From NCBI GenBank assembly GCA_016744065.1, contig JADGFA010000002.1:28796-92795 (forward strand): a stretch of 64,000 nucleotides of DNA, written 5' to 3'. The number at the start of each line of letters is the position of its first letter. Positions within the stretch are counted from its first letter, which is position 1. The DNA is from Gammaproteobacteria bacterium (GTDB lineage Bacteria > Pseudomonadota > Gammaproteobacteria > SZUA-229). This document shows positions 33,462-50,264 of this stretch, piece after piece. The notes under the pieces are model-generated. The model saw only the letters and a list, made by a program, of their open reading frames with translations. It did no database searches and had not been told where the DNA came from. A program made the position numbers and the translations under genes.

Positions 33462-34499
33462 TTACTGGTTCTTTTCAAGGCTTTGAATTTTCTTGCTTAC
33501 TTTTTTTGCACGATTAATGAGCTGTTTTATTTCTGTGTTTTTGGGCTCTAGTTGCAGCGCCTGTTGCCATACTTTTAGTGCGCGGTTAATTTTATTTTTA
33601 CTGTAAAGCTCTTTGCCAAAGCGTATTTTACTTAATGTAAGCTCTTTTATTTCTTTATTTAAAGAGTCTAACAGGCGTTTTGTTTTTTTGTGCGCAGGGT
33701 TGATAGTAAGTAGTGTATTAAGGTGTGATCGTGCCTTGTTGTACGCATGCTTTTCATATGCGGTGCTGTATGATGTGAGTAATTCATTATAGCGTTTTTG
33801 ATCTGATTTATTTTTTAATTGAACATCAATTTTTGTAACCCATGATTCTTTTTGTTCTGTAGGGTCCAGTTTGTTTGATAAAAAATAGCAATCACGCGAA
33901 ATTATATAATGTTTATTACTTTTAGCTTGATCACCACACATTTCAAGGTGTCGAGCCACTTCAATTCTGTCTTTATTGTAGCGACTTATGTCGAATTGAG
34001 CACTATAGTCCCATGGAATTAGTTTATGTAATTTTTTGTATATTTTCTGGTATGAAATTAATGCATCAGCCTGCTTCATAAGCATGTCTTTTCTTAGTGT
34101 GGTGACTTGATGGTCTCTCTCATGAAGTAGTTCAGTTTTTTCTTTGTTAAGCCTCGGCTCATTTTCTATTTTCTTAAGTGCATTGTTATAAGTGTCGAGG
34201 GCTTGTTGCCATTCATTTGATTGCTTTAATTTTTTAGCTTTTTTTGATGTGTTCTCAATAAATGTGCTTTTCTTTGTATCAATAGTGTATTTTTTGTTCA
34301 GAGTTTCTTTAAGTGTACTGTCATTTTTACTGGCACTTTGCAGGGCATCATTAATTTCATCAAATTCATTATTGGCAAGCCATTGCTCAATGTTCTGCTC
34401 AAATGATTCAGGAGATGTGTTGATCAGAGAGCACGCTGGCATAAACAAATATGTGAGCAAGATAAGAGTGGGCCGATTAATAAGTATGGAAATATTCAA
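33462..34499 (-). CDS. TPR-repeat putative lipoprotein
   Basis: Hydrophobic N-terminus ending PAC; WQQALDTY, ALKVWQQALQLEPKN; ATGA overlap with cyclase gene. Confidence 0.72.
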   Translation of the reverse strand: MNISILINRPTLILLTYLFMPACSLINTSPESFEQNIEQWLANNEFDEINDALQSASKNDSTLKETLNKKYTIDTKKSTFIENTSKKAKKLKQSNEWQQALDTYNNALKKIENEPRLNKEKTELLHERDHQVTTLRKDMLMKQADALISYQKIYKKLHKLIPWDYSAQFDISRYNKDRIEVARHLEMCGDQAKSNKHYIISRDCYFLSNKLDPTEQKESWVTKIDVQLKNKSDQKRYNELLTSYSTAYEKHAYNKARSHLNTLLTINPAHKKTKRLLDSLNKEIKELTLSKIRFGKELYSKNKINRALKVWQQALQLEPKNTEIKQLINRAKKVSKKIQSLEKNQ

Positions 34500-36010
34500 G
34501 TACAGGACTCAGTTAGATTACTCAGAATGTTATTTATCTGTTGTTCCATAAGCTTTTTGTGATCAGGTTTAACACTATCAACTAGCCAGGTAGATACGGG
34601 GTGTTGTTTTCCGCGGACACGAATGACTTTATGCTTATTCGCAATTATATGTTTGGAGATACTACTCTGTTTGTACAACTCTTCAAGAATAATTATCTGG
34701 TCGCTTTCGGCAATGCCAGCTAGCCGTGAAGCAATGTTGACTGGATCTCCAATTACAGTGTATTCCATGCGGTCATTTGATCCAAGGTTTCCGGCTATCA
34801 TAGCGCCACTGTTAACGCCGATTTTAAAGTGAATAGGAATTTTGTTTTGTGTTAAGCGTATGTCATTAAGTTTAGTTACTGTTTCACGAATCATAATAGC
34901 GCAGTTTACTGCGTTGAGGCTATGGTTTTCAGAGTAGTCTGGAACACCAAAAACAACCATGGCACAGTCACCCATAAACTTATCAATGTGTCCATTATGC
35001 AATTTTGCAATGATTGCAATATGTGAAAAATATTCATTGAGTAGATTTGTAATTTCTTCAGGCGGCAATTTTTCAGAAATGCCGGTAAAGCCAACAATAT
35101 CTGCAAACAAAACAGATGCTGTTATGTGCTTTCCACCTAATTCAATATTATCCAGATTTTTTAAAAGTTTTTGTGCAACATTACTGGATACATATCGAGA
35201 GAAAACATCTTCAACCTGAGTTTTTTGTAATAAGCCATGAGCCATCTGGTTGAAGGCGCAGGCAAGCTCACCAATTTCATCATTGCGACGTTCATTTAGG
35301 CGAAATTTAAAATCACCTTTACCTATTGCTTTGCTGGCGTCAACCAGATTATGTATAGGCTTGGATAAATGTCGGCTCATGACAAATGCGAGTAATATAG
35401 CAATTAGACTCATTAGTATGGTTGCAAAAATAATAACAAATCGTGAGTTTTTTAATGATTGAACCATTTGCTGTTTACTGAAGGTGATAATTATATGTCC
35501 AGCAATGAGTTGCTTAAATTTGATTGGGCTATCAAAACAGATTAATTTATCGTGAGGGTTTGTGACTGTGCTCCATTCAAAAATATGAGAAGTTTTTTTA
35601 TTGCTTAACTGATGCTGAATATATCCTATGGATGGCGTCAATCCATTTTTTACCAGAATTTCATTTTGGTCAGAAATTACAATAGCACCTTTGATGCGCT
35701 GATTGTCTACTAAATTATTGACCAGTGTTTGCAGGCCAAGTGTATCGCCAGAAAGTACCATTTCTGAAGCGCTAATTGAAACTTGTCTGGCAACGGTTGA
35801 ACCCATATCATTAATCTGTTGGTTTAAAACTATTTTCTGGTTTTCCAGAATAATAAAGCCAAGAGTTGACATACCACTTACGATTAGTAATGTAATGGCA
35901 AGGGCTAGCTTTATAGCAATGGGAACTCTTATTTTAAAGCGATTGTCATTGTTTACTGGAGGTATCTGTTTTGTGTTCGGGTTCAAATCATGCTCATTCA
36001 TTAAATTCAT
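34496..36010 (-). CDS. Membrane class III adenylate cyclase with HAMP domain
   Basis: 2 TM, HAMP (DEIGELACAFNQM), LFADIVGFT, IDKFMGD, YTVIGDPVNIASRL. Confidence 0.9.
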   Translation of the reverse strand: MNLMNEHDLNPNTKQIPPVNNDNRFKIRVPIAIKLALAITLLIVSGMSTLGFIILENQKIVLNQQINDMGSTVARQVSISASEMVLSGDTLGLQTLVNNLVDNQRIKGAIVISDQNEILVKNGLTPSIGYIQHQLSNKKTSHIFEWSTVTNPHDKLICFDSPIKFKQLIAGHIIITFSKQQMVQSLKNSRFVIIFATILMSLIAILLAFVMSRHLSKPIHNLVDASKAIGKGDFKFRLNERRNDEIGELACAFNQMAHGLLQKTQVEDVFSRYVSSNVAQKLLKNLDNIELGGKHITASVLFADIVGFTGISEKLPPEEITNLLNEYFSHIAIIAKLHNGHIDKFMGDCAMVVFGVPDYSENHSLNAVNCAIMIRETVTKLNDIRLTQNKIPIHFKIGVNSGAMIAGNLGSNDRMEYTVIGDPVNIASRLAGIAESDQIIILEELYKQSSISKHIIANKHKVIRVRGKQHPVSTWLVDSVKPDHKKLMEQQINNILSNLTESCT

Positions 36011-37171: not shown

Positions 37172-38175
37172 GATGGCAGCGTTTTGTTAGTATATTGAGA
37201 GCGAGAGATCGAGAGTTTCTGCGTGATAGAAGTGCACTTGCCTGGAATATTATTTTTCCGCTGCTGATCATTCTTGGTTTTGCTTTTGCGTTTACCGGGG
37301 ATCAGGTGAATCAATATAAAATAGGCGTTATAGAGCAGCACGAAGATGCACTACTAACTTTTTATACAACAGATTATATACAGTTTATACCTATAGAAGA
37401 GTCTGAGAAGGTGCTGGCTATTGATAAAGTGAAGCGACACCAGTTGGACATGTTGCTGGATGCAAGGTTAAAGCGTTACTGGATGAATGACAGTTCCCCT
37501 TCGGGTTACATGCTTGAAAAAGTGTTAGCAGGTAGTGGCGGTGAGGCTTATCAGAAGCAATTAGTGCAAGGTGAGCAAATACGTTATGTCGATTGGCTTA
37601 TTCCCGGTGTTCTGGGTATGAATATGATGTTTAGCGCTTTGTTTGGTGTAGGTTATGTTGTTGTTCGGTATAGAAAAAATGGTGTGCTTAAGCGACTTAA
37701 AGCGACGCCTCTTAATGCATTAGAGTTTTTATCTGCACAGGTCGTTTCTCGATTATGGCTTATTATGGCTATTACTTCTGGTGTCTTTATTGGCTGTAAT
37801 TTATTAATTAATTTTGCTATGCATGGCAGTTACCTGAATCTATTTTTAGTCTATGTTCTGGGTGCTTTTTCTATGGTGAGTATGGGGCTGATAGTGGCTG
37901 CACGGGTTAAATCAGAAGAGATGGCGGGCGGGCTGCTAAATATGCTTTCCTGGCCCATGATGTTTTTGTCCGGTGTCTGGTTTTCGCTGGAAGGTTTACA
38001 CCCCTGGATACAGAAGCTGGCCCTGGTCTTTCCATTGACCCACATAACACAGGCTGCACGTGGTATAATGCTGGATGGTGCCAGTTTGTCGGCTATTTTG
38101 CCAAATCTGGTGGCTCTGTTGGTTATGAGTATTATTTTTTTACTGCTAGGTGTGCTTTTGTTCCGTTGGGAATAG
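37168..38175 (+). CDS. ABC-2 exporter permease
   Basis: RYVDWLIPG, GVLKRLKATP, FLSGVWF, PLTH. Confidence 0.9.
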   Translation: MRWQRFVSILRARDREFLRDRSALAWNIIFPLLIILGFAFAFTGDQVNQYKIGVIEQHEDALLTFYTTDYIQFIPIEESEKVLAIDKVKRHQLDMLLDARLKRYWMNDSSPSGYMLEKVLAGSGGEAYQKQLVQGEQIRYVDWLIPGVLGMNMMFSALFGVGYVVVRYRKNGVLKRLKATPLNALEFLSAQVVSRLWLIMAITSGVFIGCNLLINFAMHGSYLNLFLVYVLGAFSMVSMGLIVAARVKSEEMAGGLLNMLSWPMMFLSGVWFSLEGLHPWIQKLALVFPLTHITQAARGIMLDGASLSAILPNLVALLVMSIIFLLLGVLLFRWE

Positions 38176-38243
38176 CAGGCATATATCTTCTTCTCCCCCA
38201 GAAAGATATTTTAAAATGGCAGGTATTGTATTGAGGTTAAAAA

Positions 38244-38639
38244 ATGTTTCACTTAAGTGAAGAACGGCAAATCCTGCTAACACAAAAAATTATGGCTAAT
38301 CTGGATGAGTGGGGCCTGTGTGCTGCAGATCAGGTTGTTGTGCTTAGTTTGCCGGAAGGTACCCGTACCCGTAAGTTACGCGCGTACCATGAGAATACGC
38401 CATTACCAAAAGATGATAATGTTGAGTTCAAGGCGATACGTATTTTAGGGATAATTGATGCCCTGCGTACGACTTACCCTAAAAATGAAATGATGGGTGC
38501 GCGCTGGATGAAAAAACCTCATCGTCGCTTTCAGAATCGACCACCATTACAGGTGCTGGTTGAAGAGGGTAATGTGGGTGCTGATAGTGTACTGGCAGAA
38601 CTGGATTGCTCTTATGCATGGGAGTTAAGTGCCAAGTAA
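38244..38639 (+). CDS. Xre/MbcA/ParS antitoxin-like (DUF2384) protein
   Basis: C-terminal ARWMKKPHRRFQNRPPLQVL pattern. Confidence 0.65.
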   Translation: MFHLSEERQILLTQKIMANLDEWGLCAADQVVVLSLPEGTRTRKLRAYHENTPLPKDDNVEFKAIRILGIIDALRTTYPKNEMMGARWMKKPHRRFQNRPPLQVLVEEGNVGADSVLAELDCSYAWELSAK

Positions 38640-38778
38640 TTATTTTGACTATGTTGTCCTGGCATAGTGTCTTTCTGGAATTTTCAGTAGTTTTTTTCTT
38701 TATTGTCTTTTTAGCATACCGATAAAAATTTGCCGACAAAGACCTGCAGAACAGTGCTGAAAAAGTATATGGTTTTGT

Positions 38779-39123
38779 CTATCCAGCATATTGGTATGCT
38801 TTATCGCATCGTGCTGCCATAATAAAATCATTAACAGATAATCCTGCGATACTGTGTGTCCACCAGCTTATATTCACTTTACCCCATTCAACGCAGATAC
38901 GAGGATGGTGATTTGCCTGTTCAGCGAGGTCAGTAATTTGATTTGCAAAAGCCATTGCCAGAGTGAAATTTTTAAATTGGTACGTCCTGTTAATTTGCTT
39001 AATATGTGATATGACGCTGAGTTGCCAGTAGTTTAGCTCGATAAGGAACTCTTCAATTTTCTTATTAGACAGTGTTACACTGCTGCCAGATGTCTTTAAA
39101 GGCTGGTCGATTAAGGCGGCCAT
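38779..39123 (-). CDS. phhB: Pterin-4-alpha-carbinolamine dehydratase
   Basis: FKNFTLAMAF, AEQANHHP, WWTHSIAGLSVNDFIMAA. Confidence 0.88.
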   Translation of the reverse strand: MAALIDQPLKTSGSSVTLSNKKIEEFLIELNYWQLSVISHIKQINRTYQFKNFTLAMAFANQITDLAEQANHHPRICVEWGKVNISWWTHSIAGLSVNDFIMAARCDKAYQYAG

Positions 39124-39197
39124 AAGCAATCCCACTATATTTTAAAAAGCGTATGCGCTGTAAGTTAATATTATAAAGATATTCTAACGGGAAAGTG

Positions 39198-39575
39198 ATG
39201 GAAAAAGAGAATACATCTGAAGTTGAAGCATTTCGCGATATGTTGGCACTGCAGGGCAAATTGTTTTTAATCAGGGGGGATTTACCTGCAAATAAAGTAG
39301 AGTTGCAATTTGAGGGTGTCTTGAATGGTGTTTCTGTTGTGTGGCATGCCTGTGTGAGAACGATTGAGGAGTACTCATTGCACAACCCGGTTTCCGATGA
39401 TCCAGAGCAGTACATAAATATTGAAGTTGTAAATGAACGGTATAAGCTGGAAGTTGGCTTAAATGTTAGTCAAATTGATTTGTCGGTGTTAGAAAGCACT
39501 ATAATTATGATTAGAAAATATAAGAGGTTGCGCCTGGGTTATCATGAATATGGGGTGCGAAGTAAAACCGAGTAA
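39198..39575 (+). CDS. Hypothetical protein
   Basis: Clean ORF; IIMIRKYKRLRLGYHEYG C-terminus. Confidence 0.62.
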   Translation: MEKENTSEVEAFRDMLALQGKLFLIRGDLPANKVELQFEGVLNGVSVVWHACVRTIEEYSLHNPVSDDPEQYINIEVVNERYKLEVGLNVSQIDLSVLESTIIMIRKYKRLRLGYHEYGVRSKTE

Positions 39576-39614
39576 GCTTTTCAGTTTCTATTTTATGGTT
39601 TGGTAAAGGGGCAG

Positions 39615-40271
39615 ATGTCAGGAATGAAACGTATAGTTGTGATTAATACCAAAGGTGGCTGTGGTAAAACAACGGTTTCAACCAGTCTGGCCAGTTATTA
39701 TGCATCTAGAGGTATTAATACCGCACTATTTGATTATGATCCTCAAGGGTCAAGTATGCGCTGGTTGAAACTTCGTAACGACAGTATGTCTGATATATAT
39801 GGTGTTGTCGCGCATAGAAATTCTGCCAAGGCGGTTACGATGAGCTGGCAGCTCAGGTTACCGCCTGAAACTGAACGAGTCATTATCGACACGCCTCCAG
39901 GCTTAAAAGGCCCAGAACTTAGAGAGCAATTAAAGGGGGTGGATAAAATATTAATACCCGTTTTACCTTCTCCGCTTGATATTTTTGCTACGGCCGATTT
40001 TATTCGTGATTTATTGCTGGATGTTAAAGTCAGGTTAAACCAGACTAGTATAGGCATTGTGGCAAATCGTGTCAGAAAGAATACGGTTGCTTTTCAATCA
40101 CTTGAGCGCTTTTTAAGTTCATTAAATATTCCGGTAGTTGCTAGTTTAAGGGATACACAGAATTATTTACGAGCTACTGAGGAAGGTATGGGTATACATG
40201 AGTTAAAAGGTAAAAACGTGTACGTAGACAGAATGCACTGGAAGGCGGTTGCGGAATGGCTTGATAAGTGA
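39615..40271 (+). CDS. ParA/MinD-family ATPase (orphan)
   Basis: NTKGGCGKTT, DYDPQGS, IIDTPPG, PVLPS; no parB nearby; start uncertain. Confidence 0.88.
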   Translation: MSGMKRIVVINTKGGCGKTTVSTSLASYYASRGINTALFDYDPQGSSMRWLKLRNDSMSDIYGVVAHRNSAKAVTMSWQLRLPPETERVIIDTPPGLKGPELREQLKGVDKILIPVLPSPLDIFATADFIRDLLLDVKVRLNQTSIGIVANRVRKNTVAFQSLERFLSSLNIPVVASLRDTQNYLRATEEGMGIHELKGKNVYVDRMHWKAVAEWLDK

Positions 40272-40301
40272 GTACGTCTGAATATTACACAGGCTTAAAT
40301 T

Positions 40302-40328
40302 AAGAGGCTCGCTTTAGGTGAGCCTCTT
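40302..40328. terminator. Bidirectional terminator-like hairpin
   Basis: aagaggctc...gagcctctt between convergent genes. Confidence 0.6.
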
Positions 40329-40341
40329 TCTATTTTCGAGA

Positions 40342-41001
40342 TTAAATATTACCTGTATGGCGGAAAATACCCAGTCCCGCCAGTCCGGATAAAAATAAAT
40401 ATAACGCTGCTGGTAAAGGAACGAGAACAGGTGCATTTAAGCCGATGGCATATGACATTAATGATGTTTCGTTACCTAAATTAACCTGAATATTATTTAT
40501 ACTCTGGTTCAAGTTAACATTGAAATCGTTCAGATCAAGAAAAATAACTGAAAGATCAGCCGTTCCTAAAGTGCCATTTGGTAATAATATGTCTGTTACC
40601 AGATACTTTTCTCCATTTGGTCCAGGGTTTACAAATGGATCATCATTAACAAACAATTGTCTTGAGGTGATTGGGCCGCTATTAATACCATTGATATTGA
40701 CAGAAACCGTGTTATTAGCGGTAATAAAAAATAAGGCAAGATCATTTCCATTCTGATTTGACAGGGCTGTATTTTCAAAATTTAAAAAAACAGCTGCATC
40801 GATTGATGTGCCTTTAATGTATGTGTTTACAAGAGAGTTTGTAATTGCTCCGTTGGTGTTTTCAAAAACAGAGCCAGTGAAGCTTGATGAGGTTGCGCCT
40901 GCGTCTGTGTCTAGTCCATATGGTCCAATACTAATAGGGGCTGCGAATGCTTGTGCAGAAAAAATAGCTGTTGCAGAAAGTAATAATCGTAATTTTTTCA
41001 T
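40342..41001 (-). CDS. VPLPA-CTERM (PEP-CTERM variant) sorted surface protein
   Basis: Signal peptide (AFA); Asn/Ser/Thr-rich body; C-terminal VPLPAALYLFLSGLAGLGIFRH. Confidence 0.88.
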   Translation of the reverse strand: MKKLRLLLSATAIFSAQAFAAPISIGPYGLDTDAGATSSSFTGSVFENTNGAITNSLVNTYIKGTSIDAAVFLNFENTALSNQNGNDLALFFITANNTVSVNINGINSGPITSRQLFVNDDPFVNPGPNGEKYLVTDILLPNGTLGTADLSVIFLDLNDFNVNLNQSINNIQVNLGNETSLMSYAIGLNAPVLVPLPAALYLFLSGLAGLGIFRHTGNI

Positions 41002-41062
41002 TTTTATTTCCCAAATTGCATATTATCAATACCTGGCGCTGGGTTGATAATTATTCCTTGCT

Positions 41063-41380
41063 TTAAAATTGATTAACGGGCGTTGTTGGTGTGACAACAG
41101 GTGCGATAACTACGCTGGTTACCTGAGGGGCGTTAGGTGTTACTGGTGGAGCAGTGCGAAATGTGAGTATCGCTTCACGTAAAAAAGCAGAATTTTCATT
41201 AGGCCGAAAATTCACATCCGGTGTCTGGGCGGGGGGTGGCGTTACCTGAGCAACTGGCCCTGCTGCGGGTTGAATGCCTTCGGCCCATTCACCCCATGTG
41301 TATACAGAATCCTGCTGAATTGCCATTGCTTGAATGGGCAATAATATTGCGAATGTAAATAAAATTGTTTTTTTCATCAT
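41063..41380 (-). CDS. Small secreted Pro/Thr-rich protein with PAAG motif; candidate T11SS cargo
   Basis: Signal peptide (AMA); DSVYTWGEW..IQPAAGP; lies downstream of the Slam-like gene. Confidence 0.7.
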   Translation of the reverse strand: MMKKTILFTFAILLPIQAMAIQQDSVYTWGEWAEGIQPAAGPVAQVTPPPAQTPDVNFRPNENSAFLREAILTFRTAPPVTPNAPQVTSVVIAPVVTPTTPVNQF

Positions 41381-41413
41381 ATTTAAGACCTAAATTTTGT
41401 AATAAAAATACAG

Positions 41414-41428
41414 GCAAATCCAGTGCCA
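41414..41428 (-). promoter_or_regulatory. Sigma54 -24/-12 promoter
   Basis: Minus strand TGGCACTGGATTTGC (GG-N10-GC), about 35 nt upstream of ATG 41380. Confidence 0.7.
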
Positions 41429-41586
41429 CAAAAAATAAACAACATTTTAAACAAATGCTTAGGCTAGTTGATTATAAAATGTGGGTGATCCTTGTCTTGG
41501 GCGCTCCTTCCCATTGTAAGAGAATTATAATTATCGTGGAGCCTCTGTCCATACCCCATTTGAGTGGCTTATTAGAGGGGAATATC

Positions 41587-41599
41587 TAACTCATTGATT
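41587..41599 (-). promoter_or_regulatory. IHF-binding site
   Basis: Minus strand AATCAATGAGTTA fits WATCAANNNNTTR; upstream of the sigma54 site. Confidence 0.5.
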
Positions 41600-41795
41600 T
41601 TATAGGTGAAGTTTGAAATGTATTTGTCATTTTTCAGATGAATAGTGGTTTATATTCAGGCGCTCTATTGTAAATATTATCGACATGATGCACGGTTTAT
41701 TGACGCTTTATATTTAAACAAAGAGAAATTGTCTTTTTCAGGTTTATCATGCTTATTTATATGCTTTAAGTGTACTAATAATGGTTTTTTTCAGG

Positions 41796-43061
41796 TTAAA
41801 AGAAATAGCGACGTAAATTGATTTCAAATATATTGCGATCATAGGTGAAATCATCCAGATTTGAGTCATTATCTGTAAATGTATACTGGGTATTTACAGT
41901 CCATGACTTGAGAAATCCGCCGTGGAAGTCATGGCTTATACCCAATACAGCCAGTAACTCGGTTTCATTGCGTTTCTCTGTGTAACCTTTTGTGATGTCG
42001 GCCGCTTTATATCTGTAGTCACGGCTGCTTAATGTTAAATATGCTCGAGCATTTTCCCAGGCAGGTATCTGGCCACCGAAGTATATTTCACCACCAGTCG
42101 AATGGAGTGCACCATCTTTAGCGCCATTATTGTGATATTTAATGCCTGCCTGTAAGCCGATAGACTGATCAGTATAAAATTTGGCAATATCTATACCCCA
42201 TACTGTCATAGTGCCGGTCAGACCTTTGTCTTCCTGTTGATCGTACTCACGGGCTGTCGTGGTATTTTCAAATGTGATCTCAAGGTCTTCCTGAATACTG
42301 TAGGTGTAAAGTGGGTTGATACCTGCGTATTTTGCATAATCGTCTTTGCCGAATATAAGCTTGTCCAGTTTAAAATTGAAGGCAGCACGCCAGCGCTTTT
42401 CTTCAGAAATGAAGGCAGGGCCTGTGCTAAGTGATAATACTGAGAGGTTAAATTCAGTATTATCAGATCCATATGCTTTGCTATAGGCTGTGGCCTGGGT
42501 TTGCCATTCAAAGTCAACAATAGAGTTATTAATATGCATAGCCTGGCTGGCACGTGAGCGATGTGAATAGGTGAACATAAACTGCCCGCCGCTGCCATTT
42601 TCTTCGGATGATATATTGGTGTTGCCTGTTATATCTTTTCCTGGGCCCAGATTTATATTTGAATCAGTGAACATGCCTGCTGATATATACATGGATGATG
42701 TGGAGCGTTGGGCGGCTGTTTTGATATCACCAGATAACTGAGCCATATATGCGGTTACCGATAATTTAACTTCATCCGGAGTTTCGGGGTCATTTAAAAC
42801 CTGACTTAACTGATCTTTTGCATCTTCATAGCGGCGGGTTAGATGATAAGAAATGGCAAGCTCAAGGCGCGCGCGATTAAGGCTGGGCTGGTTGCTTAAT
42901 ATGGTTTCAAAGAGCTCAATAGACTTAAACAGCTCTCCATTTAAGCGATAACGCATTGCTTCATTAAATAAAACTTCTGGATCTACAGCCTCTTCAGCAT
43001 AGGTGTTAGGCGAAGCTAATGCCATGTATAAACAAGCTGCCACCAGAATTTTCCTGATCAT
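41796..43061 (-). CDS. Slam/DUF560-like (type XI secretion) TPR plus beta-barrel outer-membrane protein
   Basis: Signal peptide, TPR with RARLELA, DSNINLG, amphipathic strands, terminal RYFF. Confidence 0.78.
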   Translation of the reverse strand: MIRKILVAACLYMALASPNTYAEEAVDPEVLFNEAMRYRLNGELFKSIELFETILSNQPSLNRARLELAISYHLTRRYEDAKDQLSQVLNDPETPDEVKLSVTAYMAQLSGDIKTAAQRSTSSMYISAGMFTDSNINLGPGKDITGNTNISSEENGSGGQFMFTYSHRSRASQAMHINNSIVDFEWQTQATAYSKAYGSDNTEFNLSVLSLSTGPAFISEEKRWRAAFNFKLDKLIFGKDDYAKYAGINPLYTYSIQEDLEITFENTTTAREYDQQEDKGLTGTMTVWGIDIAKFYTDQSIGLQAGIKYHNNGAKDGALHSTGGEIYFGGQIPAWENARAYLTLSSRDYRYKAADITKGYTEKRNETELLAVLGISHDFHGGFLKSWTVNTQYTFTDNDSNLDDFTYDRNIFEINLRRYFF

Positions 43062-43298
43062 TTAAGTACTCTCAAAGTGATTTTGCGTGATATTGACGTT
43101 TTTTATATATATTTACAAGGGAAAACGTACAGTTATTCCACCTGGTCGAGACTTATTCTGATTAAATAAGCCATTTATTAAATATAATTATCAGGTGTAA
43201 ATGTTCTACAATTTGCCGTTAAGTTATTGTATTTGTAAGCTGCTCAAAGTGTGTCTGAGTATGTGTCTGGTTCATATTATTGTTAAGAGGAGGGTTAT

Positions 43299-43931
43299 TT
43301 GAGCTGTAAAAACAGATATTGCTTATACGGGTATATTTTTTTGTTTGTTTTGCTGCCTGAGGTTGTTCTTGCAGGACTTTTTGGGTATCAGTCAAATGAG
43401 CGTGAAAATTTAAAACTGTTTCCTCAATGGTTATCGGTTTTAGAACGTAATATTAAACAAAAGGCATTAGAAGGAAACTGTGAAAATAACAGGCTTGATC
43501 ATTGTCATGTTAGAGACTGGTTGAGGTTTTTAAAAAGCATTCAGTCGCTTTCAAAAATGCAACAGATAAATAAAGTTAATTTATATGCTAATGAGCATGA
43601 CTATCTTCTGGATATTGAGAATTACGGAGTAAAAGACTATTGGGCGACACCACGAGAGTTTTTATATAATAATGGTGATTGTGAAGATTACGCAATAACA
43701 AAAATGCTATCCCTTAAGATGCTTGGTTTTAATATGCAGAGTATTAAGCTGGTGGTATTACAGGATACAAATTTAAAAATTCCACATGCGGTTTTAGCTT
43801 TATATATTAAGGACGATATATTAATAATGGATAATCAGGTAGACGAAGTTATTTCACATAAACATATTTTGCATTATGTTCCTGTATATGCCGTTAATGA
43901 AAAAAAGTGGTGGATGTTCCTGCCTCAATAA
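43299..43931 (+). CDS. Transglutaminase-like cysteine protease (BTLCP/LapG family)
   Basis: Signal-like N-terminus; DYWATPREF, GDCEDYAITK, HAVL, IMDN (Cys-His-Asp triad). Confidence 0.9.
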   Translation: MSCKNRYCLYGYIFLFVLLPEVVLAGLFGYQSNERENLKLFPQWLSVLERNIKQKALEGNCENNRLDHCHVRDWLRFLKSIQSLSKMQQINKVNLYANEHDYLLDIENYGVKDYWATPREFLYNNGDCEDYAITKMLSLKMLGFNMQSIKLVVLQDTNLKIPHAVLALYIKDDILIMDNQVDEVISHKHILHYVPVYAVNEKKWWMFLPQ

Positions 43932-43965
43932 GAGGGTCTTTTAAAATTTAAATAAGTAATATTGT

Positions 43966-45987
43966 ATGAAAGTTAAAAATAATGCATTTAAAATAAAGTT
44001 CCCCCCCGTATTGGCAAGTGTATTTTTGGGCCTATTTATTGTAATAAGTTTATGGTTGATATTTGAGTATGCGGAAAAAGAAAAAAATCGTGATTTGACT
44101 AACTGGCAGTCACGTCTGGCGCTATTGGCTGAGATAAGATCGGCGGCTGTTGAAGACTTGATATGGAAGCAAAAAAAACAATTAAAAAAACTGGCTGAAA
44201 ATACAAGTCTCAGGTTGTTTCTATCGGAGTATAATAATAGAGATAAAGTGAATGAAGTCGTATTGAGTGCAGTGCAGGGGCATGTGAGGAATTTGTTAAG
44301 GGCGAGCGCAGGAAGCTTTGGATTTCTGGAAAATATAACGGCTATTAAGAAAAACAGTTCTGGTGAGTATGGTCTTGCGGTACTGGATAAAAAGCAAATA
44401 CTGGTTATGTCTACAAAAGGTTTTCCTGTCGATATTGAAGCGCATAAAGCTGTAGTTAAAAAAACATATAATGCAGCGAAAATACAGGTAATTGATCTGT
44501 ATTCGGGTGAGAGCAAACAATCGGTCTATGGATATATTATGCCTGTTTTTCAGGTTCAGGACATTGAATTAATAGAGCCTGTAGGTGCAGTTATATTGTT
44601 ATTGAATCCGCAGAAAGATTTATACCCAATATTGAAAAACAGACAAAGTATAACCGGTTCAGATGAAAGTTTACTGGTGAGGCAGGAAGGTGCCAGTCTT
44701 GTTTATATAAGCCCGATAAAAGAAGATTATAATTTATTTCATCGCCTTCCTGATAATAATAATCAACTGGCATCGTCGTATGCTTATCATAATCCAGGCG
44801 GTTTCAGGGAAGTTCAGGACTATCGAGGTAACAATGTGTTGGTTACCGGGCGAGAAGTTAAAGATACGCCCTGGAAACTGGTTCAGAAAATTTCAGCGTC
44901 TGAGGCGTTAGCTGAATCAAATAGCCATCAGACGTTTTTGTTAACAACATTTATCTTATGTGTTTTTTTTGTAGCAATGGCCTTTGTCGCAATTTGGCGG
45001 CATAGTACCAGTTTAAGATTACAGTCTTTGAGTAATGTGCTTGAGGCGCGGACTATTTTGCTCGATGCAGTTACCGATAACATAAAAGATAATATTATTT
45101 TACTGGATCAGAACTCAAAAATTATCTTTATGAATTCTGCGTTTTCACATTTATTGTCGATAGATATTGATGAAATAAAATCAAAACATATAACCAGTGT
45201 GTTAGGCAAGGAAACGGCAGAACGATTGATAAATAGTATATGTGCTGATACTAAAACCTGTGTTATGTCTTTGCAGATTGATTCCTGTGAACGGGTATAT
45301 CATGTGGTCTCTACGCGACTGGTTTATGGTGAGCACCAAAGTGCTGTGTTATATGTGTTGCATGATATAAGTGAATTAAAACAGGAACAGGAAAAGCGTG
45401 AGCAATTGGGGCAGGGTATCATTGGGACTCTGGTTAAAGCGGTGGATATGCATGATCCGTATTGCATAAATCATTCTGCACGCACCCGGGATGTTGCAAT
45501 CGCGATTGCTAAAGAAATGAATTTAACTGAGATGCAGTTAGAGTCGCTGGAAATGGCGGCTTTATTAGCAAATATAGGTAAGTTGTATGTTCCAAAGGAA
45601 ATACTGACTAAAATGGAAGCGCTATCTGATAACGAATCAAAACAGTTGAGAAAACATATTGGGTTTGCTGTCGATATATTATCTGAGCTCCCTTTTAGTG
45701 GGCCTGTGGTTGATATTATTTCACAGAAAAGTGAGTTCCTTGACGGCAGCGGCTATCCAGAAGGGCTGGCAGGTAGTGACATTATGCTTGAATCGAGAAT
45801 ACTGGCTGTAGCAAATGCATTTGTCGCCATGGCTAGCTCACGGGCGTATCGTGAAGGGCGAGCGGTAAAAGAGGTGGTGGATATACTTCTGGAGCAATCT
45901 GAGTCACATTACGATCGCCATGTTGTTGCTGCTTTATTTCATATTTCAGAGAATAAAGCAGACTGGAAAACGTGGCAGAGAACATAG
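43966..45987 (+). CDS. Membrane dCache-PAS-HD-GYP protein with degenerate active site
   Basis: 2 TM around a periplasmic domain ending WKLVQKI, PAS (..VLHDISE), DGSGYP and RAYR kept; HD is AN, HHE is KSE. Confidence 0.85.
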   Translation: MKVKNNAFKIKFPPVLASVFLGLFIVISLWLIFEYAEKEKNRDLTNWQSRLALLAEIRSAAVEDLIWKQKKQLKKLAENTSLRLFLSEYNNRDKVNEVVLSAVQGHVRNLLRASAGSFGFLENITAIKKNSSGEYGLAVLDKKQILVMSTKGFPVDIEAHKAVVKKTYNAAKIQVIDLYSGESKQSVYGYIMPVFQVQDIELIEPVGAVILLLNPQKDLYPILKNRQSITGSDESLLVRQEGASLVYISPIKEDYNLFHRLPDNNNQLASSYAYHNPGGFREVQDYRGNNVLVTGREVKDTPWKLVQKISASEALAESNSHQTFLLTTFILCVFFVAMAFVAIWRHSTSLRLQSLSNVLEARTILLDAVTDNIKDNIILLDQNSKIIFMNSAFSHLLSIDIDEIKSKHITSVLGKETAERLINSICADTKTCVMSLQIDSCERVYHVVSTRLVYGEHQSAVLYVLHDISELKQEQEKREQLGQGIIGTLVKAVDMHDPYCINHSARTRDVAIAIAKEMNLTEMQLESLEMAALLANIGKLYVPKEILTKMEALSDNESKQLRKHIGFAVDILSELPFSGPVVDIISQKSEFLDGSGYPEGLAGSDIMLESRILAVANAFVAMASSRAYREGRAVKEVVDILLEQSESHYDRHVVAALFHISENKADWKTWQRT

Positions 45988-46313
45988 TATTGAATTAGTT
46001 GCCAGTTAAGCTTAAGGAGTGATATGTATGTCTGAACAGGAATTAAGCTTTATTGTGTGCCCTGAGCTTTAGTGCTGGCCCAGATGTCGTAAAACAACAG
46101 ATTGGGTTGAGCCCAGAGTTTACGGCGAATTTACTATGGAGTGTTGGTGTTAGTATGTTTAACTAATACTATAAGCCCCGCAGCATATTTACAGGGTGTT
46201 TTTAGTGAAAAAATAAGTATATTAGTATTAACTGTTTGTTTTTTATTCAAATGACAGACATTATCCTATATTAGTAAAAATAAATGAGCACAAGTCAGGA
46301 GCTTGCTACAGAC

Positions 46314-48398
46314 ATGTATGAATCTTTTTATGGGCTTACGGAAAAGCCATTTACATTATTGCCTGATCCGGATTATCTGTATCTGAGCCAAAAGCATCAG
46401 CGGGCGTTGACGCTTCTTGAATATAGCATGATGAACCAGGCTGGTTTTAGTGTTATATGTGGTGATACGGGTGCAGGTAAAACAACCCTGATTCGACGCC
46501 TCCTGGTTGGGCTGGGTGATGATACTAAAGTTGGTCTGATAACTAATACGCACCATGCGTTTGGTGAGCTGCTTAATTGGGTGCTTATGGCATTTGGCCT
46601 GGATGGTGAAGGCCAAAGTAAGGCGCAAATGCATCAGATGTTCATTCGTTTCTTAATTGAGCAGTATGCGCAGAAGAAACATACTGTTTTGATCGTCGAC
46701 GAAGCCCAGAATATGAATGCAGATACATTGGAAGAGCTGCGCATGTTGTCCAATATTAATGCAGATAAAGATCAGGTATTACAGGTTATTCTTGCTGGGC
46801 AGCCGGCATTACGCGAGACGTTACGTCAACCTGAATTAATGCAGTTTGCGCAGCGTATAGCGGTAGATTATTATCTTGAGTCATTAAGTATTGAAGAAAC
46901 TAATGCTTATATTCATCATCGCCTGAAAGTTGCCGGAACGGAAGCGTCCATTTTTACTGAAGCGGCTTGTGAAGCAATATATAAATACAGTGGTGGTACC
47001 CCTCGTTTAATTAATCTGCTATGTGATACAGCACTTGTATATGGTTTTGCCGAACAAAATAAAACGATTGGTGAGCAGCTGATACATGATGTTGTGAGCG
47101 AGCAGCATAGTAACAGTATTATCCCTGCATTTAATACGGGCCAGCCGGCTCAGGACTCAGTGTTTTCAGCTGACAATATAACGCAACAATCGATAAATCA
47201 GTCAAAAACAGAAATAGAGCAGAAAGCTAATGCACAAAGAACGGTTGATAAAAAACAGGAAGAAAAATTAGTTAGTGCAGAGCAGCAGGTAATTAAAAAA
47301 GATGTGGCTGAAATATCAAAAAAATTATTTCAGCAGGCGAGAGGTGTGGAGCAGCTTGTCCCTGTGGTTCATTCGGAATCTCAGGTGAATATAGAAAAAG
47401 TCCATACTCAGAGTGCAGCCATAGATGAATCAAATGTAAGGCCGATAAAAGCAACACGCCCGTCAGAAAGTAAAACGGATGAATTTAAAATAGAAGATGA
47501 AGGAGTACAGCCTGAGGGTGCAGTAGATTCTGAAGGAAACCTGGAAGAAGGTGTAAGCAGTAAAAGTTCATTTATAGATATTGATAAGCAGCCCCCTGAA
47601 GCAAGCATAGTTGATACGGATGCCGCGCCTCTGTATATGTCACAAAGAAAGTATGATGAGGATGTTTATCATCCTATGATACATATTGAAGAAGGCCCGG
47701 GAAAGGGGCTTAATATGATTATTATAGGTGTAGTGGGGGGGATGTTTATTGCGTCTTTGATAATGATGATTGCAGCCTGGATGATGTTTGGTTCAAGAGA
47801 GAACACTAGCCAACAGGAAGTACGACAAAATGCGCGGCAGCAGCCACAATGGGAAGTGGAAAACCGAGAACTAAAAGCATTACAGAAAGAACGTGATGCT
47901 GCAATAGCCGTAACACGGGCACTGGAAAGAGAGCGTGATGCCGCAATAACCACCGCCCGGGTACAGGAAGAAATACGTGCTGCTGAAATGCGTGCCGCAG
48001 AAATATTAGCAGCACAGGAGCAGCGGGCGGAAGTAAAATTAACGCGGGCGAAAGCACGTATCAGAGAGGCAGAACGAGCTGAATCCAGGGCACTGGTTCG
48101 TGAGCGTGAGATGCAGCGCAAGGCGGAAAGAAAAGAGGCTGAATTAAAAAGTGAGCGACTGAATATGTTTCATAAGGAGCAGGCTCGTTTAGAAGTGCTG
48201 GTTGTCGAAAAGGAAATGTCAGCCCGGCGATTACAGGCAAAACAGGTCGAGCAGAAAGAAGTAAAAGAAAAGCCTGTTGAAGAGGCAATAGTTGAGCCAG
48301 ATGTTAAAAGCAAAATTAAAGAAAAGGCAAAAAAAAGATTTTCATCTAACCCCTGTAATAGCCCTTCTGCGAAATTCCTTTCAACATGTAAAAAATAA
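46314..48398 (+). CDS. ExeA-like AAA ATPase with TM segment and coiled-coil tail
   Basis: MYESFYGLTEKPF..PDP, GDTGAGKTT, LIVDEAQ, GGTPRLINLLCD; TM, E/R/A-rich coil, C-terminal NPCNSPSAKFLSTC. Confidence 0.85.
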   Translation: MYESFYGLTEKPFTLLPDPDYLYLSQKHQRALTLLEYSMMNQAGFSVICGDTGAGKTTLIRRLLVGLGDDTKVGLITNTHHAFGELLNWVLMAFGLDGEGQSKAQMHQMFIRFLIEQYAQKKHTVLIVDEAQNMNADTLEELRMLSNINADKDQVLQVILAGQPALRETLRQPELMQFAQRIAVDYYLESLSIEETNAYIHHRLKVAGTEASIFTEAACEAIYKYSGGTPRLINLLCDTALVYGFAEQNKTIGEQLIHDVVSEQHSNSIIPAFNTGQPAQDSVFSADNITQQSINQSKTEIEQKANAQRTVDKKQEEKLVSAEQQVIKKDVAEISKKLFQQARGVEQLVPVVHSESQVNIEKVHTQSAAIDESNVRPIKATRPSESKTDEFKIEDEGVQPEGAVDSEGNLEEGVSSKSSFIDIDKQPPEASIVDTDAAPLYMSQRKYDEDVYHPMIHIEEGPGKGLNMIIIGVVGGMFIASLIMMIAAWMMFGSRENTSQQEVRQNARQQPQWEVENRELKALQKERDAAIAVTRALERERDAAITTARVQEEIRAAEMRAAEILAAQEQRAEVKLTRAKARIREAERAESRALVREREMQRKAERKEAELKSERLNMFHKEQARLEVLVVEKEMSARRLQAKQVEQKEVKEKPVEEAIVEPDVKSKIKEKAKKRFSSNPCNSPSAKFLSTCKK

Positions 48399-48797
48399 AG
48401 CTGTTTTTAGAAAAATAGTCAGCCTGACATCAGTTGTTTTCTTATCTTAAAGTGTGAAACAGGTTTCAGATTAATATTGGTAGTGTATTAGTATTTATAA
48501 AGCAAAAATTATATTAAAGGATTAATTATGAGTGCAAAATATAGTCTGATGGTAGTAATTGTCGTCGCTGCCCTGTTAATGATAAGTAGCTTATAGGTTT
48601 CGCAGCCTTATTTTTTTGGGTTGTATTATTATAAGGTGCCCACGAAAACAGATCATCCCTTTGGTTTTCAATGTTGCATGGGTTTAAAAAGAGTACAGAT
48701 TGTTTTTGGTGTAATTTGATGCATTATAAAAATTATATATACTTGACGTGTAATTGAACTACACTGTTTATGTTTATGTATAAATATAGGACGTTAT

Positions 48798-50264
48798 ATG
48801 CAGTCACCTGAAGTCACAAAAAATATTCATTTACATTGGCGCAGAACAAAAATAATAGCCACACTTGGCCCAGCAAGTAAAAGTGAAAAGAAAATAACTG
48901 AACTAATTGATGCGGGTGCAAATGTATTTCGATTGAATATGTCTCATGGGACACATGATGAGCATAGAAAGCTGGCCGAGCGCATTCGAAAAATATCAAA
49001 ACGCAAGAAAGAGCATGTCGCTATACTTATGGATTTGTGTGGTCCAAAAATTCGAGTAGGTGATTTTGAGGAGGGTGAAATAGAGTTAATTTCAGGTGAT
49101 GAAGTTGTAGTTAGCTGTACTGCTTCAACAGGTATGGCAGGTTTGATAGCATCGCAATATAAAAGCCTATATAAAGACGTGAAAAAAGATGAAAGAATAT
49201 TGCTTGATGATGGAAAATTAGAGCTAGTTGTTAAATCTGTTAATGGTAAAGAAGTGCATTGTAAGGTTATATACGGTGGAATATTAAAAAATAAAAAAGG
49301 CCTCAATCTGCCTGATTCAAATATTTCTATTAATAGCTTTACGGCCAAGGATAAAAAAGATTCAGAACTGGCAATTGAGTTAGGAGCTGATTTTTTGGCT
49401 TTAAGTTTTGTTCGGGATGAAAAATGTATTACAACTTTAAAACGATATGTGAAAAAATCTGGAGGCGATATACCTGTTATTGCTAAAATAGAAAAACCTG
49501 AAGCAATAAAATACATAGACAATATCCTTTCTGAAGCGGATGGGATAATGGTTGCCCGGGGTGATCTGGGTATTGAAATGCTTGCACAACAAGTGCCTTT
49601 GATACAGAAAGAGTTAATAAATAAAGCAAGACTACATGGGAAGCCTGTAATAGTGGCAACTCAAATGCTGGAATCAATGATAACAAGCTCAAAGCCCACA
49701 AGGGCAGAAGTAAGTGATGTCGCTACTGCTGCGTTATCAAGTGCAGATGCGGTTATGTTATCGGCGGAAACAGCCAGTGGTGATTTTCCTGTGCTTGCAG
49801 TGAATGTTATGAATGATATATTACGTGAAATGGAAGCGTATCAATGGCAGCATGGAAAGTTTGGTGAGGCAGACTTTGAACAGTGTGCAGAAATGATAGA
49901 GCCTGATAGAAAAGCGATAGCAAAAGCGGTAAAAACACTGGCTCATGAGTTAAAGCTACAGGGTATCATCGTGCCTACACGAAGTGGTTCAACAGCACGG
50001 GTGTTATCTGCCGACAGACCGGGAGCACCTTTAATTGGTGTAAGTTCTGATGAAGAAGTCTGTAGGCGACTGGCGTTAAGCTGGGGTGTGGTTCCTATAT
50101 ATATTAAAGAAGAAATAACCCATGACTGGCAGGGGTTATGTAATAAAGTTGCCGACATGTGCAATATCGCAAGTACAGGAAATCGTGTTTTACTTGTATC
50201 TGGCTTTAGTGATGATGCAGAGCTGAATGAACCAGTATTGAAATTAATGAAAATTAAAAATTAG
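48798..50264 (+). CDS. pyk: Pyruvate kinase
   Basis: RRTKIIATLGPAS, FRLNMSHG, IMVARGDLG, ATQMLESM, MLSAETA. Confidence 0.96.
   Translation: MQSPEVTKNIHLHWRRTKIIATLGPASKSEKKITELIDAGANVFRLNMSHGTHDEHRKLAERIRKISKRKKEHVAILMDLCGPKIRVGDFEEGEIELISGDEVVVSCTASTGMAGLIASQYKSLYKDVKKDERILLDDGKLELVVKSVNGKEVHCKVIYGGILKNKKGLNLPDSNISINSFTAKDKKDSELAIELGADFLALSFVRDEKCITTLKRYVKKSGGDIPVIAKIEKPEAIKYIDNILSEADGIMVARGDLGIEMLAQQVPLIQKELINKARLHGKPVIVATQMLESMITSSKPTRAEVSDVATAALSSADAVMLSAETASGDFPVLAVNVMNDILREMEAYQWQHGKFGEADFEQCAEMIEPDRKAIAKAVKTLAHELKLQGIIVPTRSGSTARVLSADRPGAPLIGVSSDEEVCRRLALSWGVVPIYIKEEITHDWQGLCNKVADMCNIASTGNRVLLVSGFSDDAELNEPVLKLMKIKN

Follow-up and report, generated by a model that had tools for sequence, protein, structure and literature searches.

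The DNA analysed here, called the window throughout, is a stretch of 64,000 nucleotides from a gammaproteobacterial genome (NCBI GenBank assembly GCA_016744065.1, contig JADGFA010000002.1, positions 28,796 to 92,795 of the forward strand). The subject of this work is a divergent locus at positions 40342–48398 of the window, where a periplasmic protease of the LapG family and an inner-membrane receptor with a degenerate HD-GYP domain are encoded next to an outer-membrane barrel of the Slam family and to p105, a secreted protein of 105 amino acids (aa) that carries the sequence PAAG. The protease belongs to the bacterial transglutaminase-like cysteine proteases (BTLCPs). The locus comprises the following features:

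40342–41001, minus strand: VPLPA-CTERM secreted protein, 219 aa (TIGR03370 match)
41063–41380, minus strand: p105, 105-aa secreted protein with PAAG (open reading frame, ORF; no family)
41258–41269, minus strand: PAAG codons P38-A39-A40-G41 of p105, predicted BTLCP site (consensus fit)
41414–41428, minus strand: sigma-54-type −24/−12 element TGGCAC-N5-TTGC, located some 34 nt upstream of the start codon of p105
41796–43061, minus strand: Slam-family outer-membrane barrel protein, 421 aa (TPR_Slam below cut-off, homologues and model)
43299–43931, plus strand: DvhG-type BTLCP/LapG-family protease, periplasmic, 210 aa (Peptidase_C93)
43680–43682, 43785–43787 and 43830–43832, plus strand: catalytic codons C128, H163 and D178 of the protease
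43966–45987, plus strand: DvhD-type inner-membrane receptor, 673 aa (PAS and HD_5; dCache by fold)
45568–45573 and 45751–45759, plus strand: receptor motif codons, A535-N536 at the HD position and G596–P598 of GYP
46284–48398, plus strand: ExeA-like AAA ATPase, 704 aa (AAA_22; TIGR03015-like)

The protease and receptor genes are separated by 34 nt (43932–43965), and the receptor and ATPase genes by 297 nt. The protease/receptor pair stands back to back with the divergent barrel gene, which p105 adjoins. A scan of positions 38000–49000 against Rfam at E ≤ 1 gave no match, and so no riboswitch in the 416-nt gap.

An earlier reading of the locus (the original prediction) took it for a protease release system gated by cyclic diguanosine monophosphate (c-di-GMP), built on a Slam translocon and a catalytically dead HD-GYP receptor. 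The six ORFs lie at the coordinates that it claimed, and its domain calls were upheld: a LapG-family protease with an intact Cys-His-Asp triad, a dCache-PAS-HD-GYP receptor lacking metal ligands, a VPLPA-CTERM protein, and a 105-aa secreted protein with its PAAG site at residues 38–41 after a signal-peptide-like N-terminus. The call of a Slam-like barrel stood by way of homologues and of a structural model, and did not stand by the barrel's own Pfam scores. A homologue search of the window also bore out the claimed absence from it of a type I secretion system (T1SS), a giant adhesin and LapD. No homologue of LapD, HlyD or TolC was found in the window and no adhesin-like ORF either, the largest ORF (1289 aa) encoding an HrpA-type helicase.

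The Desulfovibrio precedent for an HD-GYP-type receptor/protease pair, which the original prediction had cited, is real: it is DvhG/DvhD of Desulfovibrio (Nitratidesulfovibrio) vulgaris Hildenborough, published in 2024 and 2026 (PMC10990149; PMC13090378). According to the later paper, the BTLCP DvhG needs calcium and cleaves [T/A/P]AAG, like LapG, between the two alanines, and its D316A/E318A and C317A mutants are inactive (PMC13090378). DvhD is described there as a dCache-PAS-HD-GYP protein with SQ in place of HD and MN in place of HH, which binds c-di-GMP and shows no hydrolysis of it in vitro (PMC13090378).

The window protease matches Peptidase_C93 at 66.2 bits. The segment G126-D-C-E-D130, which includes the catalytic C128 and the flanking D127/E129 pair of the calcium site, is invariant in 25 of 25 homologues, and so are H163 and D178. 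Solved LapG-family chains are matched with E-values of 1.7e-16 (4u65) and 4.1e-13 (4fgo). Against the LapG equivalog model the protease scores 78 bits, the cut-off being 320, and it is only 34% identical to the canonical LapG encoded elsewhere in its own genome, on contig C54.

The receptor is built, in order, of a transmembrane segment, a periplasmic dCache domain (residues ~38–322), a second transmembrane segment, a PAS domain (~366–470) and a degenerate HD-GYP domain (489–653). A PAS match and an HD_5 match at 142.5 bits were obtained, and none of the domains LapD_MoxY_N, HAMP, GGDEF or EAL was found in this protein. The metal ligands have been lost (HD has become AN, HH has become QK, and the D of the VAD motif has become N), while GYP is retained; with these residues at its metal positions, the receptor does not qualify as an active HD-GYP phosphodiesterase. 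The same degeneration runs through 26 homologues, which have [A/S/L/I]N at the HD position (26/26), Q[K/S] at the HH position (26/26) and GYP in 24 cases; the D of the VAD motif is replaced in all of them except L038.

The best sequence match of the receptor is PDB entry 9rc0, an 'HD domain/sensory box protein' that is the cytoplasmic fragment of DvhD (E 2.6e-43, and E 1.2e-79 with a 25-sequence receptor profile); active HD-GYP proteins trail behind it (5z7c, E 7.8e-22; 4mcw, E 1.5e-17). The periplasmic part was recognized by fold. An AlphaFold2 model of residues 38–322 (pLDDT 85.9) has as its first-ranking Foldseek match 9rc2, 'DvhD, periplasmic domain' (E 5.6e-11, TMt 0.74); dCache domains of chemoreceptors come next. 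Sequence and profile searches of the PDB with the receptor missed this DvhD dCache chain, the sole match to the periplasmic part being KinD (E 0.15). The receptor is a homologue of DvhD across its whole architecture. When the c-di-GMP contacts of DvhD (PMC13090378) were mapped by hand on the alignment of the receptor with 9rc0, in which all 11 named residues agree with an offset of 490, six of the eight canonical-site contacts were identical by our own mapping (Y499, L553, Y597, M622, R626 and Y628). The conserved contacts suggest that the receptor's HD-GYP domain may bind c-di-GMP.

The barrel protein was placed through its relatives. Among 23 aligned homologues (E ≤ 0.01), TPR_Slam is matched in all 23 and SlipAM/PF04575 in 11 (best E 6.5e-10), and two homologues that were looked at singly exceed the 22-bit cut-off of PF04575. 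Nearly all database homologues carry a precomputed PF24575 annotation and some PF04575, and one has been named 'surface lipoprotein assembly modifier' by NCBI. In other families, the barrel homologues are followed by TbpB_B_D proteins. The AlphaFold2 model (pLDDT 88.1) shows TPR helices over residues 28–117 and then 14 strands, with the best TM-scores to the 14-stranded OmpG (TMt 0.69–0.71); no solved Slam is among the Foldseek matches listed for it. Since the barrel's own Pfam scores are sub-threshold, the Slam assignment rests on the domain matches of the homologues and on the 14-strand model, which indirectly mark the protein as a probable, divergent member of the Slam/type 11 secretion (DUF560) family.

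Outside the window, at G000:C21:39185-40513, lies the only direct PF04575 (SlipAM) match of the genome, a second Slam-type gene that is followed by a 681-aa ORF. At L049:12761-14067, a Slam-family gene is present in two overlapping ORFs (161 and 279 aa), which could reflect a frameshift or a sequencing error. At L064:10609-11397, the neighbour of a barrel from the window's subfamily is a FecR-domain protein that has YSWGPW close to its C-terminus and is without xAAG, and no protease is encoded in the vicinity; this single case hints that the WGxW peptide goes with the barrel and not with the protease.

p105 gave no family match in Pfam or NCBIfam. It consists of a signal peptide (recognized by eye), the segment D24-S-V-Y-T-W-G-E-W32, the site P38-A-A-G41, an NFRPNE..AF.R stretch and a variable Pro/Thr-rich tail. 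Residues D24, S25, W29, G30, W32, P38, A40 and G41 are invariant in an alignment of 19 sequences, and the small proteins of the family have in common DSVYxWGxW, then G..PAAG and then NFRPNE..AF.R, their Pro/Thr-rich tails being divergent. PAAG fits the [T/A/P]AAG consensus of the LapG and DvhG proteases, and [TPS]AAG is found in 20 of 23 aligned relatives that share the N-terminal module. On this sequence evidence p105 is proposed to be the substrate of the protease, and by analogy with DvhG and LapG the scissile bond would lie between A39 and A40. PAAG occurs within the first 60 residues in 9 of the 4336 ORFs of at least 90 aa in the genome, and the pattern WGxW...xAAG in p105 alone. A complex prediction with protease residues 25–210, p105 residues 21–85 and calcium (ipSAE 0.01) was counted neither for nor against.

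Among 1.84 billion cluster representatives, a profile of the module retrieved 285 with E ≤ 0.001, of which 107 reach E ≤ 1e-10. The best 150 matches include 106 proteins shorter than 250 aa and 44 longer ones. W[GA]xW followed, 4–5 residues on, by PAAG (134) or TAAG (2) is present in 136 of these 150, a count that is partly circular because the profile itself holds the motif. Proteins of TbpB-type barrel architecture are the classical cargo of Slam/type 11 secretion. In other gammaproteobacterial families, the module heads proteins of 320–460 aa that end in such a barrel. In a wider set, 8 of 20 long module proteins match TbpB_B_D at E ≤ 0.01, two of them above the cut-off of 26 bits (L046 with 27.0 and L055 with 27.7 bits; L053 and L057 score lower). 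A profile of the long cargo found only LbpB in the PDB, with an E-value of 0.042 that is too weak for use.

Conservation was followed outwards from the genome's own family (f1), where the receptor is present in 19 of 24 other genomes and 12 loci were examined. Protease and receptor are adjacent in 12/12 and the barrel is back to back with the protease in 12/12 (the barrel of L043 extends past the end of its contig and was recognized by eye). The small protein is found in 9/12 and the VPLPA-CTERM protein in 8/12, and wherever one is missing the contig ends first. Genes for pyruvate kinase, PutA and ParA are also syntenic across these loci, so that conservation within the family, on its own, shows only common descent; in L042 the left flank is different and the cluster is kept.

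Sampling 400 genomes of the class yielded a full-length receptor homologue (33–42% identity) in 15 that lie outside f1, and all 15 loci were examined. The protease is adjacent to the receptor in 15/15, the barrel is present in 9/15 and a WGxW...PAAG-module protein in 10/15, one of them with PAAA. The module protein is 361–461 aa long in nine of these ten loci and 173 aa long in L051. In L053, barrel and cargo lie between receptor and protease; in L050, the cargo lies beside the protease and the barrel elsewhere on the chromosome. The loci without the module comprise L059 and L060 with a TolC-type gene (one of them also with a cadherin-type adhesin), L054 and L056 flanked by leuS, and one at a contig start. 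A phylum-wide sample of 400 genomes added nine receptors from other classes, with the protease adjacent in 9/9, barrel or module in 0/9 and T1SS genes in 2/9 (L067 and L068). No recognizable substrate was seen at L054, L056 or L069–L075.

When the class sample was searched with the barrel, five more genomes were found to have the Slam subfamily and no DvhD-type receptor. In three of them (G224, G320 and G191; loci L061, L062 and L063), the barrel is followed by a protein of 111–113 aa starting with DSVYQWGHW or DSVKEWGHW, and a LapG-type protease, 30% identical to that of the window, is encoded together with a true LapD (LapD_MoxY_N, GGDEF and EAL) within 4.6 kb of barrel and module protein. 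The site of these small proteins has the LapG format: a helix, DP, and then TAAG, SAAG or PEAG. In the protease tree, the proteases of L061–L063 and the LapG of the window's own genome form a separate clade with support 100/100. The same output is thus coupled to two unrelated receptors. A PEP-CTERM protein comes right after the small protein in two of the three LapG/LapD-coupled loci. A fourth of the five genomes is that of L064, described above.

Across 97 genomes of the order, 57 have both the DvhG-type protease and the barrel, five have only the barrel, one (73% complete) has only the protease, and 34 have neither; protease and barrel are adjacent in all 57, as read from the coordinates. 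These counts do not amount to a statistical test because the genomes are kin. Decay was also seen: on contig C32 of G064, an internal TAA stop interrupts the protease and the barrel falls into two parts, and in G077 (L077:8444-8899, minus strand) a 151-aa remnant ORF fuses part of the protease to the receptor's end, the small protein there having PASG. Judging by names attached to some of the homologues, the organisms are uncultured marine and vent-associated sulfur-type Gammaproteobacteria.

One alternative denies the neighbourhood any function: the substrate would be encoded elsewhere, for example as a T1SS adhesin as in Desulfovibrio, and the position of the pair beside barrel and p105 would be inherited gene order. 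DvhD-type pairs do stand beside T1SS genes in L059, L060, L067 and L068; furthermore, the whole region is syntenic in the family, housekeeping genes included, and the Slam-linked proteases form one tree group. Against it, the cluster outlives rearrangements (L053, L050 and L042), the same barrel and module protein are also coupled to LapG/LapD with a site format that follows the protease type, and switch and barrel are lost and decay together.

The own genome bears on the same alternative. The original prediction had allowed that a canonical LapD with a T1SS adhesin elsewhere might account for the protease. Such an operon does exist outside the window, on contig C54 (G000:C54:25015-34015), with genes for a TolC-like protein with an OmpA-like end, a second BTLCP (LapG), LapD (118 bits for LapD_MoxY_N, the sole match to this domain in the genome), an ABC exporter, an HlyD-type protein and a LuxR-type regulator. 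However, this LapD has a LapG of its own, the one noted above as 34% identical to the window protease, and the canonical operon therefore does not account for the window pair. A crude scan of own-genome ORFs of at least 600 aa, read by eye, showed no obvious adhesin-type N-terminal xAAG. Taken with these points, a substrate encoded elsewhere appears quite improbable.

The reading that we favour, and consider probable, is that the locus encodes an 'inside-out' c-di-GMP switch of the DvhG/DvhD type that has as its output a protein which a Slam-family (type 11 secretion) barrel handles, and not a T1SS giant adhesin. The catalytically dead HD-GYP domain of the receptor would take up c-di-GMP in the cytoplasm, and the receptor, by way of its PAS domain, membrane helices and periplasmic dCache domain, would restrain the calcium-dependent protease. 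When c-di-GMP falls, the protease would be freed and would cut the PAAG of p105 between its two alanines. The DSVYTWGEW peptide may serve as the hold on the periplasmic side of the barrel, for instance at the TPR domain, with the remainder of p105 passed outward through the barrel; the cut would remove this tether and the exposed part would be shed. The window holds a short form of the module protein, paired with an exosortase-sorted protein.

A wider proposal is made more tentatively, as possible but rather short of probable. It holds that the type 11 secretion system (T11SS) may provide a third output class of Lap-type switches, after T1SS and two-partner secretion. In it, a portable module of about 20 residues (DSVYxWGxW, 4–5 residues, PAAG) would tether T11SS cargo at the Slam barrel, and c-di-GMP-controlled periplasmic cleavage would shed that cargo. 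The switch, LapG/LapD or DvhG/DvhD, would have been exchanged while barrel and module stayed, and the short passenger-less forms, accompanied by an exosortase-sorted protein, would form a link between Slam export and exosortase sorting.

Several observations weigh against a Slam-linked release switch. The barrel itself scores 32.5 bits for TPR_Slam, where the cut-off is 35.2, and has no PF04575 match. p105 is without the TbpB-type barrel that is the hallmark of classical T11SS cargo, and only about 17 residues precede its site, compared with the folded retention domains of LapA and DvhA. The site varies, being PSAG, PAAA or PEAG in 3 of the 23 aligned relatives. In the receptor, two canonical-site contacts are changed (K582 to S and E668 to Q), and only one of three bridging-site residues is identical. 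All Slam-linked DvhG-type proteases fall into one tree group (support 81/90, not starred) and leuA flanks the long cargo, on its downstream side, in seven loci; the DvhG-type loci thus share one origin, and the notion of ten independent barrel–protease associations was rejected on the tree and the shared flank, so that about two couplings are counted. Five genomes of the order retain the barrel without the protease. Finally, in genus g32, G086 (PASG) and G085 (PASA) keep an intact protease and receptor (small proteins at L082:5537-6037 and L083:3882-4232), while G079 and G082 have PAAG. The explanation is either that Ser is accepted by the protease at P1' or that the site is drifting, and with PASG or PASA beside an intact switch the site is not strictly tied to the switch. 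The rule that PAAG is lost only where the protease is lost was accordingly dropped as not clean in g32, PASG occurring both with the switch intact (G086) and with the switch deleted (G077).

The same anatomy and conservation would serve equally well for licensing instead of release. The module would retain the protein in the periplasm or plug the barrel, cleavage would permit the export of p105 or of another cargo such as the VPLPA-CTERM protein, and low c-di-GMP would mean that secretion is on. The short forms, which lack a passenger or TbpB-type domain and are followed by an exosortase-type protein in four of the five families that have them, suit a regulator or plug better than a displayed cargo. 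On the other hand, the long forms resemble ordinary soluble T11SS cargo with the module added, and the known logic of the Lap and Dvh systems is retention followed by release of an adhesin (PMC13090378). Licensing is regarded as unlikely, and release of a tethered protein is preferred.

Co-conservation in other genomes, which the original prediction had proposed as its check, was observed: in 12/12 loci of the family for the barrel, in 9–10 of 15 in the class, and in the order as both genes in 57 of 97 genomes and neither in 34. Its wiring of the switch to type XI secretion or exosortase-sorted proteins is upheld for the Slam barrel and PAAG protein by this same conservation, together with the three LapG/LapD genomes; the part concerning exosortase is a recurrent neighbourhood only, and on the secretion side the missing TbpB-type barrel of p105 counts against it.

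That neighbourhood begins with the 219-aa protein encoded after p105, which matches TIGR03370 (VPLPA-CTERM) at 26.5 bits, above the cut-off of 25.35. In the four family loci where no orthologue of it follows the small protein, the contigs end earlier, and PEP-CTERM or VPLPA-type proteins occupy the equivalent place in L051, L052, L061, L063, L081–L083 and L085. Directly downstream of the long forms, an exosortase-type protein is found in one of nine cases. The idea that the VPLPA-CTERM protein is the split-off half of a long cargo was rejected, hhalign giving a probability of 11% and aligning the signal peptide only. A single exosortase (247 bits) is encoded in the genome, on contig C30 (G000:C30:2704-3465). 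About 14 proteins of the genome have VPLPA-CTERM tails of the type AVPVPAAVWLF..GL..ARRK by a crude pattern scan, one of them encoded just upstream of the window.

The element TGGCAC-N5-TTGC ahead of p105 is the sole strict sigma-54-type match on both strands of the window. Of 22 other loci, 12 have a relaxed form of it just upstream of the cargo gene; the background is nine matches to the relaxed pattern in 128 kb of window sequence.

These neighbours raise the alternative of a role in exopolysaccharide or exosortase biology like that of HvyA, to which the protease is here likened by description: the target of the protease would be the export or matrix machinery, with p105 and the VPLPA-CTERM protein as parts of the matrix controlled by sigma-54. 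HvyA, which restricts capsulation in Caulobacter, is a BTLCP that has no Lap-type partner (PMC4241560), and an RpoN-dependent PEP-CTERM gene serves floc formation (PMC9850573). The recurrent exosortase-type proteins, the sigma-54 element ahead of the gene pair and the resemblance of the ATPase to that of PEP-CTERM systems fit such a role. Nevertheless, the xAAG site is in the small protein and none is in the VPLPA-CTERM protein, the protease retains the calcium site of LapG and DvhG and has a DvhD-type receptor as its partner, the long-cargo loci mostly have no exosortase-type neighbour, and the ATPase is not conserved beyond the family. This alternative is considered very improbable, and a switch acting on a Slam-handled protein remains the preferred reading.

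The ExeA-like ATPase scores 92 bits for AAA_22 and 297 bits for TIGR03015, under the cut-off of 324.5. Ten of 12 family loci have it after the receptor; of the other two, L043 showed no copy downstream, and the contig of L042 ends at that point. Beside the receptor it occurs in 0/15 class loci and 0/9 phylum loci, and it was rejected as a component of the system and is taken as a lineage-specific neighbour. Of the original prediction, its presence at 46284–48398 thus stands and its membership of a conserved module does not. Three paralogues are encoded in the genome, on contigs C7, C74 and C34. The second half of the protein has a low-complexity stretch, a hydrophobic transmembrane segment at about residues 475–500 and then a long region rich in Lys, Glu, Arg and Ala.

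Other genes near the locus were noted. Small neighbours at 38244–40271 are kept in the family: an Xre/MbcA/ParS-type antitoxin domain protein (38244–38639), a pterin-4a-carbinolamine dehydratase (38779–39135), an ORF without family (39195–39575) and an orphan ParA-type ATPase (39600–40271). At 34496–36010, on the minus strand, lies a gene for a membrane protein with HAMP and a class III adenylate/guanylate cyclase domain (Guanylate_cyc, 92.6 bits). A 345-aa ORF overlaps the end of this cyclase gene by 4 nt, and an orthologue of the cyclase is found in the related locus L039.

Of the ways in which c-di-GMP acts across the inner membrane, Lap-type switches are understood best. To our knowledge, every described case concerns giant adhesins that leave the cell through T1SS or two-partner secretion. 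We know of no post-translational control of type 11 secretion, nor of an assigned cargo for most environmental Slam clusters. If the proposal is true, it would provide a regulated release step for T11SS cargo, a short recognizable sequence tag that predicts both cargo and protease substrate, and a natural case of two unrelated c-di-GMP receptors swapped onto one output. The combination points to an undescribed control over bacterial surface display.

The claim that the combination was undescribed is in keeping with the literature. No paper joining LapG with T11SS, Slam, TbpB, DUF560 or exosortase was found among open-access papers and bioRxiv (main articles, without supplements), and none linking exosortase substrates to BTLCP or Slam proteins in the same collections. 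The terms Slam, T11SS, TbpB, tetratricopeptide and lipoprotein do not occur in the main text of PMC13090378; its Supplementary Data 1 and Fig. 9b tabulate DvhDG orthologues by class and may include gammaproteobacterial members. By term search, the accessible text of PMC12282271 and PMC8406197 holds no mention of a protease or of c-di-GMP control.

Among known systems, PEP-CTERM/exosortase sorting (PMC1569441) is shared in that the window gene after the small protein ends in VPLPA-CTERM and an exosortase is present in the genome. CdrA/CdrB of Pseudomonas aeruginosa (PMC4694147) resembles the locus as a LapG-type switch that serves an export route other than T1SS, but it uses type Vb secretion and a large adhesin, and has neither a Slam barrel nor an N-terminal WGxW module. 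The Slam/T11SS systems (Neisseria Slam with TbpB, hemophilin secretors and NilB-NilC; PMC8406197, PMC12282271) have TPR and a 14-stranded DUF560-type barrel encoded beside the cargo, an architecture that the window barrel appears to share, and in relatives of the window locus the cargo has a TbpB_B_D barrel and an SPI-type signal peptide, like the 'soluble' cargo class. They differ in that the putative cargo here bears the WGxW-PAAG module, that in the window it has no C-terminal barrel and that the window barrel falls below Pfam cut-offs.

The window system would follow the same logic as LapG/LapD/LapA of Pseudomonas fluorescens and relatives: c-di-GMP is bound inside, the protease is held in the periplasm, an xAAG site is cut and a surface protein is lost. 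The Lap receptor LapD, however, is a GGDEF-EAL protein with a LapD_MoxY_N periplasmic domain, and the window receptor is without these. With the Dvh system, the locus shares a BTLCP with C-H-D triad and calcium site adjoining a dCache-PAS receptor with a dead HD-GYP domain, and, as the predicted substrate site, a [T/A/P]AAG-type sequence. The degenerate motifs are AN and QK in the window receptor and SQ and MN in DvhD. Dvh is part of a T1SS operon, and the giant adhesins that it cuts are cleaved behind a folded retention domain, whereas the window has no T1SS or adhesin and instead has a Slam-family barrel together with p105, whose module spans about 20 residues. The protease/receptor pair is already known from Dvh, and it is the proposed output, a Slam barrel with a PAAG protein, that is new.

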